41,710 bases of DNA, from contig JBEKHC010000055.1 in assembly GCA_050012475.1 (NCBI GenBank), positions 1 through 41,710 on the forward strand, read 5' to 3'. How positions within the stretch are numbered: position 1 is the stretch's first letter; each line of letters opens with the position of its first letter. The stretch is from Candidatus Velthaea sp. (lineage in GTDB: Bacteria > Vulcanimicrobiota > Vulcanimicrobiia > Vulcanimicrobiales > Vulcanimicrobiaceae). The notes beneath the pieces were generated by a model that worked only from the letters and a program-made list of their open reading frames with translations, searched no databases and was not told the origin of the DNA. Both the position numbers and the translations under genes were made by a program. Shown piece by piece: positions 29,562 to 41,710 of the stretch.

Positions 29562-31982
29562 ATGCCGCTAGTCAAGGATATCTTGCAGACGATGGAATAC
29601 GGACCGTCGCCCGAAGCGAACGAGCACGTTACCGGCTGGCTCGCGCAGCACGCCGGCGGCTTCACGCATTTCATCGACGGCGCGTTCGCCGCGCCGCACG
29701 GCGGCGAGACGCTCGAGATCGTCGATCCGGCGCACGCGACGCGCCTGGCCACCGTCGCGCGCGCCACGGCCGCCGATCTCGATGCGGCCGTGGCGGCGGC
29801 GCGCCGCGCGTTCGCGTCGTGGTCGGCGCTGCCCGGACACGCGCGCGCCCGCTATTTGTACGCGATCGCGCGCCACATCCAGAAGCGCGAGCGCTTTCTC
29901 GCCGTGCTCGAGTCGATGGACAACGGCAAGCCGATCCGCGAAACGCGCGACATCGATATTCCGCTGGTCGCGCGCCATTTCTACCATCACGCGGGCTGGG
30001 CCGAATTGATCGAAACCGAGTTCGCGGGATACGGCCCCGTCGGCGTCTGCGGGCAGATCATCCCCTGGAATTTTCCGCTGTTGATGCTCGCCTGGAAGAT
30101 CGCGCCCGCCCTTGCCGCCGGCAATACGGTCGTGCTCAAGCCGGCGAGTTTCACGCCGCTCACGGCGCTGGCGTTCGCCGAGATTTGCCAAGAAGTCGGG
30201 CTGCCCGCCGGCGTCGTCAACATCCTCTTGGGCGACGGCGCGCTGGGCTCGGCGCTCGCCGCGCATCCGGACGTCGACAAGATCGCGTTCACCGGTTCGA
30301 CCGAAGTCGGCCGGTCGATCCGCGAAGTCACCGCGGGTTCGGGCAAACGGCTCTCGCTGGAACTGGGCGGCAAATCGCCGTTCATCGTGTTCGAAGACGC
30401 CGACCTCGACGCCGCGGTCGAGGGCGTCGTCGACGCGATCTGGTTCAATCAAGGGGAAGTGTGCTGCGCCGGTTCGCGGCTGCTGGTGCAAGAGGGGATC
30501 GCGGAACGCTTTCATGCCAAACTCCGCCGCCGGATGGAAACGCTGCGCGTCGGCGATCCGCTCGACAAGTCGACGGATATCGGCGCCATCGTGGCGCCCG
30601 TGCAGATCGAACGCATCCGCGAACTCGTCGAGCAAGCCCGCCGCGAAGGCGGCCGCGTTTGGACCGGGCCCGGCGCGCTGCCCGACGGCGGCTGGTTCTA
30701 TCCGCCCACACTGATCACCGAGGTCGATCCCGCGTCGACGGTGGCCCAGATCGAGATCTTCGGCCCCGTGGCGGTATCGCTGACGTTTCGCACGCCTGAC
30801 GAGGCGCTCGCGCTGGCGAACAACACGCGCTACGGGTTAGCCGCGTCGATCTGGTCGGAGAACATCAACCGCGCGCTCGACGCGGCCGCCAAGGTGAAAG
30901 CCGGCGTCGTCTGGATCAACGCGACGAACCTCTTCGACGCGGGCGCCGGTTTCGGCGGCTACAAAGAGAGCGGCTTCGGCCGGGAAGGCGGCCGCGAAGG
31001 CATGGCCGGCTATCTCGTCGCCGATTGGGAGCGCGGCCGAACGCCGGCCCCGGCGCGGGCGGCCTTCGCGCCGTCGGCGGCCCCGGCGCCGCGGGGCGGC
31101 ACCCCAGCGAACGGCGCGGCCGTGACGCGCCTCCCCGCGATCGACCGCACCGCGAAACTCTTCATCGGCGGCAAACAAGCGCGGCCGGATTCCGGCTCCA
31201 GCTTCACGGTATTCGATGCGGCCGGTTCGCCGCTGGGTCAAGCCGGTTTGGGCAACCGTAAAGATATTCGCAACGCCGTCGAGGCAGCGGCGAAAGCGAG
31301 CAGTTGGAGCAGCGTCACCGCACACAATCGCGCCCAAATCCTGTACTACGTGGGCGAGAATTTGGCGGCGCGCGAAGCGGAATTCGCCGCGCGGCTCACC
31401 GCCCTGACGGGACACGCCCCGCAAGCAGCGGCGCGCGAGGTCGCAGCCGCGATCGCGCGCAGCTTCTGGTATGCGGCGTGGGCCGATAAATACGACGGCG
31501 CCGTTCACGCGACCAAGTCACGGCACGTAACGCTGGCCATTCCCGAGCCCTGGGGCGTCATGGGCGTCGTCTGTCCCGACGAAGCGCCGCTGCTGGCGTT
31601 CATCTCGCTCGTGATGCCCGCGCTGGCCCTGGGCAATCGGGTTGTCGCCGTGCCGTCGGAACGTTACCCGCTGGCCGCGACCGACCTCTATCAGGTGCTG
31701 GACACCAGCGACGTGCCGGCCGGCGTCATCAGCATCGTGACCGGCGAACGCGACGCGCTCGCAAAGGTTCTCGCTCTGCACGACGACGTCGACGCCATCT
31801 GGTACGCGGGCTCGCAAGCCGGCAGCGCGATGGTCGAAAAAGCATGCGCCGGTAATATCAAGGCGAGCTGGGTCAACGACGGTCGCGAACGCGACTGGCA
31901 TCGCGCGCCCGAAGGCCAAGGCCGCGACTACTTGCAGCACGCGACGCAAGTGAAGAACATCTGGGTGCCGTACGGCGATTGA
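29562..31982 (+). CDS. Aldehyde dehydrogenase, ALDH16-type (extra C-terminal ALDH-like domain)
   Basis: IPWNFP, FTGSTEVG, LELGGKSP, catalytic GEVCCAG, EIFGPV, then a second partial ALDH domain ending KNIWVPYGD. 806 aa. Confidence 0.93.
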   Translation: MPLVKDILQTMEYGPSPEANEHVTGWLAQHAGGFTHFIDGAFAAPHGGETLEIVDPAHATRLATVARATAADLDAAVAAARRAFASWSALPGHARARYLYAIARHIQKRERFLAVLESMDNGKPIRETRDIDIPLVARHFYHHAGWAELIETEFAGYGPVGVCGQIIPWNFPLLMLAWKIAPALAAGNTVVLKPASFTPLTALAFAEICQEVGLPAGVVNILLGDGALGSALAAHPDVDKIAFTGSTEVGRSIREVTAGSGKRLSLELGGKSPFIVFEDADLDAAVEGVVDAIWFNQGEVCCAGSRLLVQEGIAERFHAKLRRRMETLRVGDPLDKSTDIGAIVAPVQIERIRELVEQARREGGRVWTGPGALPDGGWFYPPTLITEVDPASTVAQIEIFGPVAVSLTFRTPDEALALANNTRYGLAASIWSENINRALDAAAKVKAGVVWINATNLFDAGAGFGGYKESGFGREGGREGMAGYLVADWERGRTPAPARAAFAPSAAPAPRGGTPANGAAVTRLPAIDRTAKLFIGGKQARPDSGSSFTVFDAAGSPLGQAGLGNRKDIRNAVEAAAKASSWSSVTAHNRAQILYYVGENLAAREAEFAARLTALTGHAPQAAAREVAAAIARSFWYAAWADKYDGAVHATKSRHVTLAIPEPWGVMGVVCPDEAPLLAFISLVMPALALGNRVVAVPSERYPLAATDLYQVLDTSDVPAGVISIVTGERDALAKVLALHDDVDAIWYAGSQAGSAMVEKACAGNIKASWVNDGRERDWHRAPEGQGRDYLQHATQVKNIWVPYGD

Positions 31983-36953: not shown

Positions 36954-39746
36954 CTACTGTTCGCGCAGAATCAAACCGTGGGGCAACGATTCACCGAACA
37001 AACTGATCCGTTCCGCGCGTTCCATCGGAACGTATTCTCGCAACGGGATCGTTTTTGCCGGCGGGACGCCCGAGCGTTCGAGCCGATCGGCGATCCGGTT
37101 GCGCACTGATTTGGGCACGTCGAGACTGCGATTGTTGATCAATCGCGCAGCGCGCAAAAAGAGCGTTTGCAGCTCTTTGAGTTTGGGTCCGTCCCACTCG
37201 AGCCGCGCGAAGGCCTCGAACGCCCGTGCCACCAGCTCCGGCGCCACCACGGTTTCCGGCCCGGCGTACAGCGGCGTCCGGTTGAGCAAGAGCGCGAGCG
37301 CAGCAAGATAATGCGCGTAGTGCTTGTTTCCCGCGGCGTGCGCCGACGCCGCGTCGATGAAGCCTTCGACCAGCCCGGTTTTCATCTCCGGACCGATGCG
37401 TTCGAGTGAACCGGCGAGCAGCACGAGCTCCGGCGAAGGGTTCGGCTGGCGGCACAGCGCGTCCAGATGCGGTGCGACGATACTTTCCTGGCGTTCGCGC
37501 GACAGACCGCCGCCCACGCGGCGCCACAAGATGTGCTCCTGGATCTCGAGCGCTTTGCTGCGAAAGGCCAGCCCCGTTTCACGCAACGTCCACAGCCGAT
37601 CGATCCGGGCCTCGTCGAGCGCCGCGCCGAAGCCGGGGCGCAACAGAAATCCGGCCAGAATGAGCCACGCCTCCTCGTGCTCCAGCGACGTTCGGCGGCT
37701 GGTCATGCATGCGTCCAGCGTCGACCACAGCGCGCGGACCAGCAGCACGTTCCACTCGCTCTTGGGCATGCCCAGCAGCAGTTCCAAACTCTTGATCAGC
37801 CGGCTCGCGGTCAGCTTGTCGCGTCTGTTGAGCGGTTGGCCGAACATGGCGGCGATTCGGCCGCGCGCGGCATCGAGCGCCGCCGGCGCGGCATTGGGTC
37901 CAGACTCGGCCGGTGTCGCGGACGGCTGCGAGCGGCCCGGCTCGCCGCCCGCGCCGGCTTCACTCGGGCGAAGATTGAACTCCAGCGGCCAGTTTCCGCG
38001 AATCTGGGGATCCGTGCTGCGGCAGGCGAGTTCGAGCAGCCCGAGTTCGTTGAGCTTGGCGTTCAAGCGAACCGGGACCGCCTGGCTCTCCGCTGCATGG
38101 TCGGCGCCGGCGGCTCGCGCGACGGTCTCCAGCGGCGGTAACGCTTGAAAGTCACGATCGTTCCAGGCCACGACGTCGCCGGCCTCATTCGCGCCGTGCC
38201 GCGTCGAGTAGTAGGTCCGGAATTGCACGGGCCGATTGATGCGCAGTTCCAGCGCCAGATCGGCGATCTCGTAGCGGCGTTCCGTCGGCGCGTTGCGCGG
38301 CAGGATGCAGACCAGCGGCGGACCCTCGGCTGCCTCGCCGGAGAGCGACGCGCGATGCGCCTCGAGAAAGATTGCGCGCGCGCTGCCGGCCGCGATCCGT
38401 TCGCCGCCGCGCCCGAGCGCGCCGAAGCACGCGGCGCCGCGGGCAACCGCGAGATCCAGTTCGAGATTGTCCAGCATGGGCGGCGGCGGGCGATTCTGCC
38501 AGCTTCCGATTTGGCGGCACAGCCGCTCGCGCAGGACCAGTGGAGCGAGGGCGCCGCCGTTGAACAGCACGGCGTCGACCGCCGGCCGGTCGCGCAGAAA
38601 CGCGGCGAGATGCCGGGTCACCGCAGGATCCGCCGCGTAAGGAAGCCCCCATTCACCGAGCGCTGCTTTCTTTTGCAGCGGACGTTCGTCGGCGTAGCAG
38701 TCGGGAAAGAATCCGTCGATGATCGCCGCTTCGATCTCCGCGCGCGTCAGTTGCGCCGAGCGCGCGCCGGCGATGAGGCTCGAACCGCGTCCGGCCAACA
38801 CGATGGGAAACGTCTGGCCGGGCGGACCCGCGTGCGACAGAGCCGATTCTTTCGCGTCGCGGCAGCGGGCGACGAGCGCGGCGAATTGTCCGCCGGACAG
38901 CCGTTCGCCGGCATCGACGAATTGCGGTTCGAGCCGATGGGCGAGCGCGAGGTCCATGTTGTCGCCGCCGAGCAGGATGTGATCGCTCACCGCGATGCGC
39001 GTGATCCGCGGGCTGCTGCCGTCCGCGCCCGGCGCGTCGAACGCGAACAGACTGAAGTCCGACGTGCCGCCGCCGATGTCGACGACGAGGACATGTCCGG
39101 GCTGGTCGAAGTGCGCGCGTGCCGCTCCGGCGTGTTCGAGCCAACGGTAAAACGCCGCCTGCGGTTCTTCGAGCAGGCGAACCGTCTCGGGAAAGCCGGC
39201 CTCGGCTGCCGCGGCGAGCGTCAGACGCTGCGCGACCGCGTCGAACGACGCCGGAACGGTGATCGTGACGATCTGGTTATCGAAGGCGAAATCGGCCCCG
39301 GCGGGCGCGAATCGCTCGTTCCACGCGGCCCGCAGATGCTGCAGGATCAGCGCGGAAGCGCCGACGGGCGAGAGTTTGTTTTCGCGAGCGATGTCGCCCG
39401 AACCCCAAGGCAGAATCGGCGCCGAGCGATCGACGGCGTGATGGCAGAGCCACGACTTGGCCGAATGCGCGACGCGTTCGGGGCGCTCGGCGGATCTCGT
39501 TCGCGCCAATCGGCCGATCACCCAACGCTCGCCGTCCGTCGGCGCGCCCGCGAACGCGCCGGCCTCTTCGTCGTCGGGAAGATACAGAAACGACGGCAGC
39601 GTCGCTGCTTCGACGACGACGTGCGACGACTCGCGTTGCGGGATCGGCACCACGTCGGAGCCGGCGTCGCGATCGAGCGCAACGCACGCCAGGGCACAGT
39701 TGGTCGTGCCGAGGTCGATGCCGACGCTGAACCGCGCGCGCGTCAC
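36954..39746 (-). CDS. Atypical Hsp70-family protein with C-terminal DUF3731-type helical domain
   Basis: GIDLGTTN, TVPASFD, LEEPQAAF, DIGGGTSDFS, LLGGDNMD, then WLILAGFLLRPGFG...ISLFGESLPHGL. GTG overlaps the upstream TGA. Confidence 0.9.
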   Translation of the reverse strand: MTRARFSVGIDLGTTNCALACVALDRDAGSDVVPIPQRESSHVVVEAATLPSFLYLPDDEEAGAFAGAPTDGERWVIGRLARTRSAERPERVAHSAKSWLCHHAVDRSAPILPWGSGDIARENKLSPVGASALILQHLRAAWNERFAPAGADFAFDNQIVTITVPASFDAVAQRLTLAAAAEAGFPETVRLLEEPQAAFYRWLEHAGAARAHFDQPGHVLVVDIGGGTSDFSLFAFDAPGADGSSPRITRIAVSDHILLGGDNMDLALAHRLEPQFVDAGERLSGGQFAALVARCRDAKESALSHAGPPGQTFPIVLAGRGSSLIAGARSAQLTRAEIEAAIIDGFFPDCYADERPLQKKAALGEWGLPYAADPAVTRHLAAFLRDRPAVDAVLFNGGALAPLVLRERLCRQIGSWQNRPPPPMLDNLELDLAVARGAACFGALGRGGERIAAGSARAIFLEAHRASLSGEAAEGPPLVCILPRNAPTERRYEIADLALELRINRPVQFRTYYSTRHGANEAGDVVAWNDRDFQALPPLETVARAAGADHAAESQAVPVRLNAKLNELGLLELACRSTDPQIRGNWPLEFNLRPSEAGAGGEPGRSQPSATPAESGPNAAPAALDAARGRIAAMFGQPLNRRDKLTASRLIKSLELLLGMPKSEWNVLLVRALWSTLDACMTSRRTSLEHEEAWLILAGFLLRPGFGAALDEARIDRLWTLRETGLAFRSKALEIQEHILWRRVGGGLSRERQESIVAPHLDALCRQPNPSPELVLLAGSLERIGPEMKTGLVEGFIDAASAHAAGNKHYAHYLAALALLLNRTPLYAGPETVVAPELVARAFEAFARLEWDGPKLKELQTLFLRAARLINNRSLDVPKSVRNRIADRLERSGVPPAKTIPLREYVPMERAERISLFGESLPHGLILREQ

Positions 39747-41581
39747 TCCGTTCGAACGGCGAACTCGACTTTCCAGCGCCGATCGGAGTTCGTGTGCTTC
39801 ATCCACAATTCGAGCGTCCCGAGTTCGGTGACGACCGCATTGATGTGGACCGGGACAGCCTGACCTGCCGGAAATCCGTCGACCGGCGGAAGGTCGACTT
39901 GCAGCAGACCCGTCTCTTCGAGTTCGCGCTCCGCATCGGGCAGAATTTGTCCCGGCTGGTCGCCGCTGCGCGTTTCGGAAGAAAAGAACCGGAAATCCGC
40001 CAGGTGCCCGGTCATCAAGCCGAATTCGCGCCCCTCGATGAGCAGCTCCGACCCTTCTTCCATCGCCTGCGGAACGACGCACAGCGCTTTGACCGGCGGC
40101 CTGAATCCGGGCACCGCGGGCATCGACGTTTCCAAGCCGATGTAGTACGAACGCGCGGTTCCGGCCTTGATGCGCGTGCCTTTCCCGGTGACGCGATTGC
40201 GGCCGTACAGCGCGGCGCCCTTGGCCACCGCGAGGTCGAGCTGCGCGCCTTCGAGTTCACGCACCGGACCGTTCGTCCACGACGCCAACAGATCGCGCAC
40301 GCGCGCGCGCAGCGGCGCGGCGTTGAACACGCCGCCGTTGAACAGCACGGCCGTCGGCGCGAGCAGGGTTTGCGCTTCGGCGCGCGCGCCGACCAGCCGC
40401 GCGAGCGAATCGCTGGCCTTTACGTTGGCCAGGCTGCGCACCAAAAACCGCGCCAGATGTTTGCTGATCGCTGCGTCCGCGGCGTACGGCAGACCGAACT
40501 CGCGCAGTCCGGCGCCGCGCGACTCTTGGGGCAGATCGCCGGCGCCGGTGAGCGGGAAGAAACCGTCGAGCACGACGCGTTCGAGCGTCGCGCGCTCGAG
40601 CGTCGTCGACACCGCGCGCGCGAACAGACTCGATCCGCGCGACGGCACGGCAATCGGCACATCAGTCAACGCCGGATCGCCGAAGAGCGCGATCTTCGCG
40701 CGCGCGGCGGCGTGCACGAGCGCGAGCAATTGCCACGCATCGATGCTTTTCCCGTCGGCTTCCAGCTGCGCTTTGAGCGTGTAGGCCAGCGCCAGATCCA
40801 TGTTGTCGCCGCCGAGCAAGATATGCTCGCCGACGCTGATGCGTTCCAACTGCAGCGCGCCGTCGATTTCGGTGACGGCGATCAGACTGAAATCCGCGGT
40901 GCCGCCGCCGATATCGCAGACCAGCACGACGTCGCCGGGTCCGACTTGCGTGCGCCATTCACGCGCCGCTTGCGAGATCCAAGCGTAGAACGCTGCTTGC
41001 GGTTCTTCGAGCAGAACGACCGCGCCGAGTCCGGCGGCCTCGGCGGCTTGCGCCGTGAGATTGCGCGCCACTTCGTCGAACGAGGCGGGCACGGCGAGCA
41101 CGACCGTGCCGTCGGACAAACTCCGTTCTCGGCCGTGCACGCGTTCGGCGTAAAGAAACCCGTCCTTCAAATGTTCCAAATAGCGGCGCGAGCATTCGAA
41201 CGGAGACAGCTTTTGCTCTTCGATATCCGAATTCCAAGGCAGCACTTGCCGGCGCGCATCGATGTGCGGATTCGAAAGCCACGACTTGGCCGAGGTTACG
41301 AGCCGGTCGGGAACGAGCGCGCCGTGGTCGCGCGCGAATTGCCCGACGATCGCGTGGTCGTCGGTCGGCGTGGCCCACGGCAACCGCAGCGCCTCTGCCG
41401 GAAACTCGTCGGGGTGCGGGATGTAGAGCGCGGACGGCAGCGTCGGCTGTTCGCCGATTTGGTTCGGCGAGAGAATTTGGGTGACGTCGACGATCTCGGT
41501 GCGGTCGTTTTCGAGATCGGTGACCGCGATCGCGCTGTTGGTGGTTCCGAGATCGATGCCGAAACTGAATCGTGCGCTTAT
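39743..41581 (-). CDS. Atypical Hsp70-family protein (probable ATA start)
   Basis: The frame is open 66 codons upstream of the ORF-track TTG and includes FSFGIDLGTTNS. Also VPASFDE, EEPQAAF, DIGGGTADFS, ending WKVEFAVR. Confidence 0.9.
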   Translation of the reverse strand: MSARFSFGIDLGTTNSAIAVTDLENDRTEIVDVTQILSPNQIGEQPTLPSALYIPHPDEFPAEALRLPWATPTDDHAIVGQFARDHGALVPDRLVTSAKSWLSNPHIDARRQVLPWNSDIEEQKLSPFECSRRYLEHLKDGFLYAERVHGRERSLSDGTVVLAVPASFDEVARNLTAQAAEAAGLGAVVLLEEPQAAFYAWISQAAREWRTQVGPGDVVLVCDIGGGTADFSLIAVTEIDGALQLERISVGEHILLGGDNMDLALAYTLKAQLEADGKSIDAWQLLALVHAAARAKIALFGDPALTDVPIAVPSRGSSLFARAVSTTLERATLERVVLDGFFPLTGAGDLPQESRGAGLREFGLPYAADAAISKHLARFLVRSLANVKASDSLARLVGARAEAQTLLAPTAVLFNGGVFNAAPLRARVRDLLASWTNGPVRELEGAQLDLAVAKGAALYGRNRVTGKGTRIKAGTARSYYIGLETSMPAVPGFRPPVKALCVVPQAMEEGSELLIEGREFGLMTGHLADFRFFSSETRSGDQPGQILPDAERELEETGLLQVDLPPVDGFPAGQAVPVHINAVVTELGTLELWMKHTNSDRRWKVEFAVRTE

Positions 41582-41710
41582 TGGAGTTCGACCTCAGCGG
41601 GAGCGATGGTCGGCAGTTCGCTGCCGGCGCGGGGGAGAACGCGCGGGAGCTTCACCGACGCGGTCTTCCAACCGCGATGCATGAGCGTTCCCGAAAACGG
41701 CGCGCGGCCG
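41578..41710 (-). CDS. DUF2760 domain protein, C-terminal end (runs off the window)
   Basis: GRAPFSGTLMHRGWKTASVKLP...IAPAEVELQ-TAA, the C-terminus typical of DUF2760 proteins that precede such Hsp70 pairs. Confidence 0.75.
   Translation of the reverse strand, partial: GRAPFSGTLMHRGWKTASVKLPRVLPRAGSELPTIAPAEVELQ

Follow-up and report, generated by a model that had tools for sequence, protein, structure and literature searches.

A putative AUA start codon on the stop codon of DUF2760 in an Hsp70-like gene of Candidatus Velthaea, and candidate near-cognate starts at -4 overlaps in the Vulcanimicrobiaceae

A putative AUA start in an Hsp70-like gene

We analysed a stretch of 41,710 nucleotides (nt) from Candidatus Velthaea sp. 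of the Vulcanimicrobiaceae, a family of soil bacteria (assembly GCA_050012475.1, contig JBEKHC010000055.1), hereafter the window, which is the entire contig C55 of this genome (G000). Its minus strand carries an intact gene for an Hsp70-like protein, here protein A, directly behind a DUF2760 gene. Our data suggest that translation of this gene most probably starts at an AUA codon by termination-reinitiation at the DUF2760 stop codon. The Hsp70-like frame is closed by an in-frame TGA at 41596-41594, which is followed by four codons (GGT CGA ACT CCA) and by the ATA at 41581-41579. From this ATA, 612 sense codons run without interruption to the TGA at 39745-39743. The ATA overlaps the DUF2760 stop codon TAA (41580-41578) in the sequence ATAA, i.e. 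in a -4 overlap. No ATG, GTG, or TTG precedes codon 67, a TTG (41383) located downstream of the phosphate-1 motif GIDLGTTN (codons 8-15). Hence, a canonical start is absent upstream of an essential conserved N-terminus, a feature of natural AUA-start genes. The original prediction, made from the sequence alone, had claimed the missing canonical start ahead of GIDLGTTN, the nearby TGA, the overlap with the DUF2760 stop codon, and the intact 612-codon frame, and all of these were confirmed. The NCBI record of protein A (P0121) comprises 612 amino acids (aa) and begins with MSARF, i.e. ATA has already been taken as the start. Residues 5-27 of protein A, upstream of TTG67, form the tryptic peptide FSFGIDLGTTNSAIAVTDLENDR. 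The elements of the start site are as follows.

41578..41581, minus strand: ATAA, putative AUA start over the TAA stop (sequence, orthologue comparison, contig check)
41594..41596, minus strand: in-frame TGA closing the Hsp70-like frame, four codons before ATA (sequence)
41591..41595, minus strand: GAGGT resembling a Shine-Dalgarno (SD) motif, in Glu-Val codons of DUF2760, 9 nt before ATA (sequence)
41537..41560, minus strand: GIDLGTTN phosphate-1 motif, codons 8-15, upstream of all canonical starts (alignment to the N-terminal DnaK motif of PDB 5obx)
41381..41383, minus strand: TTG of codon 67, first canonical start, chosen by ab initio gene callers, which would remove the ATP-binding motif (P0001/P0122, 546 aa)
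39743..41581, minus strand: Hsp70-like protein A, 612 aa, intact, not DnaK (Pfam, NCBIfam, P0121)

Reality of the ATA codon

The start junction is located only 130 nt from the contig end and was therefore tested for assembly error. Four runs were compared over 40900-41710 on the level of contigs, in which rare alleles are invisible, rather than raw reads. The ATA site was bridged by a contig in two of them, X1 and X8; X2 and X4 did not cover it. The X1 DNA contig (40900-41691, depth 6.9) differs from the window at two places, neither of which is the ATA site. The X8 contig, derived from an RNA library of a separate study (41205-41710, depth 6.05), contains three differences, one at 41396 and none listed at 41579; the other two were not itemised and presumably lie near the contig ends, as differences were itemised only away from the ends. 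The 90% cluster of protein A has three members, namely the NCBI record and proteins from two other assemblies (162-kb and 3-kb contigs). Both of the latter were called from TTG67, as is expected if no ATG exists there. Thus, at contig level, X1 and X8 agree with ATAA, and the ATGA that would have spoken against the original prediction was not found. The ATA is not an assembly error. Such an error would be favoured by the position of the site near the end of a contig of a metagenome-assembled genome with 5.3% contamination, but its probability is negligible given the agreement between contigs of two studies and the two further assemblies called as if without an ATG.

Orthologues and selection

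Orthologues were compared in 83 rows above 58% identity. ATG is present exactly at this codon, at position -7 from GIDLG, in 71 rows, another canonical start was found in 8, and one row cut by a contig end could not be scored. ATA occupies this codon in the remaining three rows from two genomes: the window, L002, and L082, the latter identical to L002 and from a genome of the same family. L002 shares 82.5% aa identity with the window and shows an ATAG overlap and 58 open codons without a canonical start. The alignment of orthologous junctions thus identified the ATA as the codon at which orthologues have ATG, and as one that recurs in a second species. The scenario of a decaying copy among relatives that uniformly carry ATGA does not apply, since not all relatives have ATGA and the gene is not decaying.

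ATGA occurs in the same register in eight loci (L070, L181, L189, L254, L271, L276, L298, and L317; about 68-73% identity). In the wider DUF2760/Hsp70-like family, 239 of the 240 junctions among the matches listed were NTGA (122 ATGA, 112 GTGA, and 5 TTGA), in a set selected for short gaps by a pattern that favours overlaps by design. No further ATA case was present among the matches listed from this junction scan, which represented Burkholderia-type NTGA junctions. Contig searches with specific NTAR and ATAR patterns resulted in 3 and 15 matches, and the L002 contig was the only true ATA case among them. L379 was rejected as an NTAR case, as a TTG follows its GTAG at a distance of two codons; in L385, L392, and L395, which are true homologues, ATA is out of frame, and the remaining matches were due to chance. 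Searches across the family (348 genomes) and across the phylum revealed no further close orthologue.

Gene callers truncated the N-terminus in 5 of the 120 best database homologues, which were the window's own protein, that of L002, and three at 84-87%. In a tree of 58 rows, the window forms a 96/92 clade with P0016, P0018, and P0123; without exception, the ab initio calls of this clade are truncated. A 99/98 node groups this clade with full-length proteins and leaves out L002. Because of this exclusion, the tree suggests that ATA either arose twice or is old and was later reversed.

Between the window and L002, codons 2-66 are 78% identical with a ratio of nonsynonymous to synonymous substitution rates (dN/dS) of 0.17, compared to 83% and 0.13 in the remainder of the gene. 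All 34 N-terminal positions that are invariant in four ATG relatives are unchanged in both ATA genes. The N-terminal segment is under purifying selection, as in a natural AUA-start gene. Translation of the stretch before TTG67 therefore takes place, or ceased only very recently, in the window as well as in L002.

The DUF2760 operon and the identity of protein A

The DUF2760 protein ends with PTIAPAEVELQ, encoded up to the stop by GAG GTC GAA CTC CAA TAA (Pfam PF10816, E 1e-9). The gene is whole: its 5'-part with an ATG start is located at the end of contig C14, and the ends of C14 and C55 share an exact overlap of 18 nt. A -4 overlap behind an intact upstream gene is characteristic of a termination-reinitiation pair. 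In contrast to such pairs, the overlap here (ATAA) does not contain a canonical NTG start. The other elements of the operon (window 36954-41710, minus strand) are as follows.

41578..41710, minus strand: final 43 codons of DUF2760, 3'-part of the gene up to the TAA at 41580-41578 (Pfam PF10816; 5'-part on C14)
39743..39746, minus strand: second operon junction, canonical GTGA overlap of the protein A stop and the protein B start (sequence)
36954..39746, minus strand: Hsp70-like protein B with C-terminal DUF3731, about 930 aa (open reading frame (ORF), Pfam)

The second junction is GTGA in L002 as well. Among the window, L002, and four ATG relatives, overlaps at both operon junctions are confined to the window and L002, and the four ATG relatives have spacers at both.

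The description of protein A as an Hsp70 holds at the level of the Hsp70/actin-fold family but needs qualification. The Pfam HSP70 model covers residues 7-338 and DnaK structures in PDB match with E 1e-15; nothing was matched beyond about residue 340. An assignment to DnaK/HscA was rejected, since the score of 75 bits is far below all NCBIfam cut-offs (822.55 for the DnaK equivalog). With DnaK/HscA the protein shares the phosphate-1 and phosphate-2 motifs and the match in the nucleotide-binding domain. In contrast to them, it is encoded in an operon of DUF2760, Hsp70-like A, and Hsp70-like B (DUF3731). By its sequence, protein A thus is an Hsp70/actin-fold protein of the DUF2760 operon and not DnaK. 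A more distant Hsp70 homologue on C1 (29% over 300 aa) presumably is dnaK. A third Hsp70-like paralogue, 37% identical and without DUF2760 in front, is located at G000:C24:7407-8747 (minus strand); compared to protein A, its frame terminates early, with an open frame of 588 aa and a match up to residue 460.

Within the family, just 5 of 348 genomes carry the operon. It is common, however, in Verrucomicrobia, Rhodospirillales, and Burkholderia, and horizontal transfer is probable. One family genome contains two copies (L001 and L027), both with ATG and spacers. DUF2760 was not found in the literature searched. Elsewhere in the window, an ORF of 806 aa (29562-31982, plus strand) resembles, as judged from its translation, an aldehyde dehydrogenase followed by a second, partial domain of this type.

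SD-like motif, RNA structure, and initiation factors

The original prediction also included a well-spaced SD motif. GAGGT is indeed present 9 nt upstream of the ATA (41595-41591), but it is no more than the Glu-Val coding sequence in the conserved AEVEL terminus of DUF2760. GAG accounts for 50% of the Glu codons in this genome, and L002 carries another motif, GGAG, at a distance of 5 nt. Hence, GAGGT would fit an SD role but does not count as evidence for it. A duplex energy of -7.7 kcal/mol was calculated with a generic anti-SD sequence, which may not be that of this organism; a 16S rRNA of its own was not found in the assembly. With a GAGGT of 5 nt here and GGAG at another spacing in L002, the two genes do not belong to the AUA starts with an extended SD known from S. 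aureus. Folding of the start region was no better than that of shuffled sequences in 70-nt windows (z -0.47 in the window, 0.55 in L002, and -0.02 in L070). On this scale, a stable structure hiding the start, as required for coupling by RNA unfolding, was not present.

By their sequences, IF3 and the initiator tRNA appear normal. In an alignment to IF3 of E. coli, the full-length IF3 of this genome retains R25, Q33, R66, and the important residue Y75. The initiator tRNA has the CAU anticodon and the three G-C pairs, and at the sequence level there is no sign of initiation relaxed by an altered IF3 or initiator tRNA. R25, Q33, and R66 are residues named in PMC9723500. The IF3 protein also extends past the C-terminal end of the NCBIfam model by an acidic stretch of about 45 aa, and its gene infC (G000:C91, L396:1252, plus strand) appears to start at ATA behind GGAGG.

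Missing start codons at -4 overlaps in the genome and the family

Erosion of start codons across the genome and the family goes beyond the single gene of the original prediction. A census of 'startless' genes was based on a rough, noisy hexamer-based model of 4330 genes and identified -4 overlaps that lack a canonical start in 20 cases: ATA in 5 of 407, CTG in 8 of 704, GTA in 3 of 715, CTA in 3 of 779, and TTA in 1 of 414. The window's own overlap was missed, since the contig ends within DUF2760. Ten candidates were retrieved and nine of these compared with orthologues. The genes concerned are listed below, together with cobS and rsmA.

G000:C18:36106, minus strand: rluD (L404), GTAA overlap
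G000:C1:147316, plus strand: polysaccharide deacetylase, intact, behind an ATAA/ATAG overlap
G000:C106:13290, plus strand: ThiL-like gene, intact, behind an ATAA/ATAG overlap
G000:C49:13873, plus strand: DUF1345 gene, intact, behind an ATAA/ATAG overlap
G000:C81:13124, minus strand: glycerate kinase, intact, behind an ATAA/ATAG overlap
G000:C9:74986, minus strand: ABC ATPase, intact, behind an ATAA/ATAG overlap
G000:C114:12038 (minus strand), C80:13820 (plus), C19:15775 (plus), and C25:31354 (plus): CTGA overlaps resembling CTG starts, four of eight
G000:C31:31940 (minus strand), C57:49555 (plus), C72:15610 (plus), and C11:29340 (minus): CTGA overlaps resembling CTG starts, the other four
G000:C32:32239, plus strand: cobS (L405; family loci L498-L501 and L511-L536)
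G000:C31:28266, plus strand: rsmA (ksgA; L403)

In rluD, GTAA replaces the GTGA of 3 out of 3 genomes of the same genus, and the first downstream start is located inside the S4 domain. For the polysaccharide deacetylase gene, all members of the genus (4 of 4) carry ATAR, compared to TTGA or GTGA in two other genera, and the ThiL-like gene has ATAG in this genome and NTGA in 5 of 5 relatives. The DUF1345 gene varies within the genus (ATAG, GTAG, ATAA, and ATAG) and has ATGA in G017. The glycerate kinase gene shows ATAA, and ACG where G001 has ATG. From the CTGA set, hisB was compared with relatives, 5 of 5 of which have TTG, ATG, or GTG, and the gene on C80 was compared with Pfam only. The CTA and TTA candidates mostly resemble broken genes and were set aside. 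A further gene without a canonical start, presumably NuoF-like, was noticed on the minus strand of C128 near position 2145. There, the sequence ATTAG points to ATT as the start codon, in a -5 overlap with the TAG upstream.

In the case of cobS, no canonical start is located within a distance of 25 codons from the conserved motif in 11 of the 30 family loci, and all 11 have a -4 overlap (CTGA in 6, GTAA or GTAG in 5). GTAR occurs in two genera, in three species of one and two of the other, and constitutes a candidate natural GUA start. CTAA or CTAG is immediately followed by GTG or ATG in 4 of 4 loci. Outgroups were sampled from the class to which a Burkholderia genome belongs and from the phylum of an Archangium genome, and none of their 25 scorable cobS genes was startless; inclusion of the partial match L555, which was dropped, gives 1 of 26. 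In rsmA, 10 out of 30 relatives at family to class level, this genome included, have no canonical start (outgroups 0 of 4), and 7 of these 10 show a GTAG, ATAG, GTAA, or CTAA overlap. Among the genomes used here that are unpublished, G011 contributed L441, one of the three rsmA genes lacking the overlap, and G048, G420, and G495 contributed ordinary cases only. Hence, missing starts and -4 overlaps are correlated across the family.

Proposed mechanism and points against it

In the favoured explanation, the ribosome completing DUF2760 would terminate at UAA and restart 1 nt back on the overlapping AUA, and GAGGU in the last DUF2760 codons may assist the restart. Output would probably be below that from AUG. 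The junction would most simply have originated from an ATGA overlap by a change of the stop codon from TGA to TAA or TAG, which would be silent for the upstream gene and remove the G of the start codon. The same stop change turns GTG into GTA, which equals the swap seen at rluD. Such changes would be tolerated if the family accepts near-cognate codons at -4 overlaps, namely ATA, CTG, and apparently GTA, but not CTA.

Initiation at AUA, as originally predicted, finds good support in the ATG of most orthologues at the same codon, the second ATA species, the constrained N-terminus, and the lack of decay. The predicted translational coupling fits the -4 geometry and the family-wide pattern, from which we infer it, and the SD may play a part. 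The use of AUA as the actual codon, a restart by the same ribosome, the succession of mutations, and the level of expression likewise belong to what we infer rather than observe. For the Vulcanimicrobiaceae in general, we regard it as an even chance that restart at -4 overlaps reads the start loosely, with AUA, CUG, and GUA, but not CUA, as natural starts of cobS, rsmA, rluD, hisB, and the ThiL-like gene. Loose reading of this kind would allow stops to drift from TGA to TAA or TAG without loss of the downstream gene.

Several points weigh against this interpretation. The genome-wide enrichment of ATA over CTA, GTA, and TTA is weak (5 of 407 versus 7 of 1908, p 0.044), and a -4 overlap is lacking for 70 of the 89 genes called 'startless' by the rough model, many of them probably representing model noise. 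For cobS, the p value of 0.003 overstates the case because related genomes are not independent, and in rsmA 3 of the 10 startless genes are found outside -4 overlaps. An in-frame GTG is located 20 codons upstream in rluD, and canonical codons are found a few codons inside the gene for the glycerate kinase of G001, the deacetylase of G001 and G003, and the DUF1345 gene of G002 and G003. The ABC ATPase on C9 was uninformative, since in its best relative the gene begins with an ordinary ATG and does not show the overlap. At the Hsp70-like gene, the closest ATG relatives (L027, L001, L084, and L003) have a spacer instead of ATGA, and the ATGA ancestor is thus deduced from the more distant relatives. 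P0016, P0018, P0123, and P0025 entered the comparison as protein records. In E. coli, AUA supports only 1-2% of the output of AUG, and 57 other non-canonical codons including GUA 0.1-1% (10.1101/063800), and an excess of IF3 lowers re-initiation there, an effect softened by an SD (PMC2268962). No trans-acting cause of the tolerance was found in the sequences of IF3 or the initiator tRNA.

Alternative explanations

Initiation at AUA could also occur de novo and be led by the SD, as in ccpN and infC of S. aureus, with the overlap being incidental. With 9 nt, the distance between GAGGU and AUA just falls within the 5-9 nt given in PMC2268962, the calculated duplex of -7.7 kcal/mol agrees with this possibility, and a start region no more structured than shuffled sequences need not be opened by a ribosome. 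However, the motif is short, not extended, and placed differently in L002, and across genes the non-canonical codon tracks the position of the stop, as in all startless cobS loci, and not an SD. We therefore consider SD-led initiation unlikely. Slightly less probable still is a recent loss of the start that left the gene silent or nearly so, with decay not yet begun. It would agree with the weakness of ATA as a start in E. coli and with the patchy distribution of the operon, which may thus be dispensable; moreover, pairwise dN/dS averages over long branches. Against it stand the intact frame, the ATA at the same codon in a second species, a clade of about 13% divergence that is uniformly N-truncated by callers, the RNA-library contig spanning the junction (DNA carry-over is possible), and the same pattern in housekeeping genes.

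A start at TTG67, resulting in a protein of 546 aa without the phosphate-1 motif, is quite improbable. TTG67 is the first canonical start and was chosen by ab initio callers (P0001, P0122), but residues 2-66 are constrained as much as the remainder. Furthermore, the internal starts called vary among relatives (about codons 37, 41, 52, 54, and 67, estimated from protein lengths), which suggests caller artefacts. Even less credence is given to a -1 frameshift at the DUF2760 stop, which would produce a DUF2760-Hsp70 fusion, or to RNA editing that restores AUG. The Hsp70 frame is indeed the -1 frame and is open from four codons before the stop. However, a slippery heptamer of the form X XXY YYZ is absent in both ATA species, no fused protein was present among the 120 best homologues (longest 636 aa; no search was aimed at longer ones), and the RNA-library contig has no change listed at the site. 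Neither frameshifting nor editing would explain the swaps from GTGA to GTAA in unrelated genes.

Relation to known systems and implications

The -4 overlap is the commonest coupled arrangement (PMC12548453; PMC10666635). As in other termination-reinitiation overlaps, the start proposed here begins 1 nt before the upstream stop, and the DUF2760/Hsp70-like family uses ATGA, GTGA, and TTGA at this junction. In contrast to the NTGA form in which the -4 overlap is described in the available text of these two sources, a TAA or TAG stop forces an NTA start. The non-canonical overlap discussed in PMC10666635 is ATT in -5 overlaps. Natural AUA or AUU starts are known for infC, ccpN, citZ, and cvfC1 of S. 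aureus, with the AUA starts yielding about 10-30% of the AUG output (PMC13009471). These share with our case an AUA on an intact, conserved gene missed by callers. They differ in the extended SD of infC, cvfC1, and ccpN, compared to a short SD and a codon placed on a stop here; in addition, GTA and CTG occur in the same overlap setting in our data, and stop overlaps are not described in the parts of PMC13009471 available. A GUA start mutant of E. coli recJ was suppressed by IF3 mutations (Haggerty and Lovett 1997, as cited in PMC2268962). The recJ mutant resembles our GTA overlaps in placing GUA at a gene for which coupling by re-initiation has been assumed, but it was a laboratory mutant requiring altered IF3, whereas the GTA overlaps here are natural and IF3 looks normal.

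No description of natural ATAA/ATAG or GTAA/GTAG start overlaps was found in the literature searched, most subscription journals and supplements being outside this search, and the supplements of PMC10666635 and PMC13009471 may list such overlaps. Within the same scope, a search on initiation in Eremiobacterota likewise yielded no paper on AUA or GUA starts at stop overlaps. The Hsp70-like gene taken alone is a further member of a known exception, since AUA starts are known and NCBI annotates this protein from ATA; the distinctive part is the repeated use of GTA within one family. Hence, the gain from the single gene is modest and the family-wide pattern weighs more.

The pattern bears on the open question of whether re-initiation at overlaps is proofread like de novo initiation (PMC12548453, PMC2268962). 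Matched natural sets exist in rluD (GTGA versus GTAA), cobS (GTGA, CTGA, and GTAG), and the DUF2760/Hsp70 junction (ATGA, ATAA, and ATAG). Gene callers clip the N-termini of such genes, and overlap surveys based on annotation are blind to NTAA and NTAG overlaps. If the proposed interpretation is true, the Vulcanimicrobiaceae would possess natural, conserved GUA starts, and re-initiation would partly escape proofreading by IF3 in this lineage.

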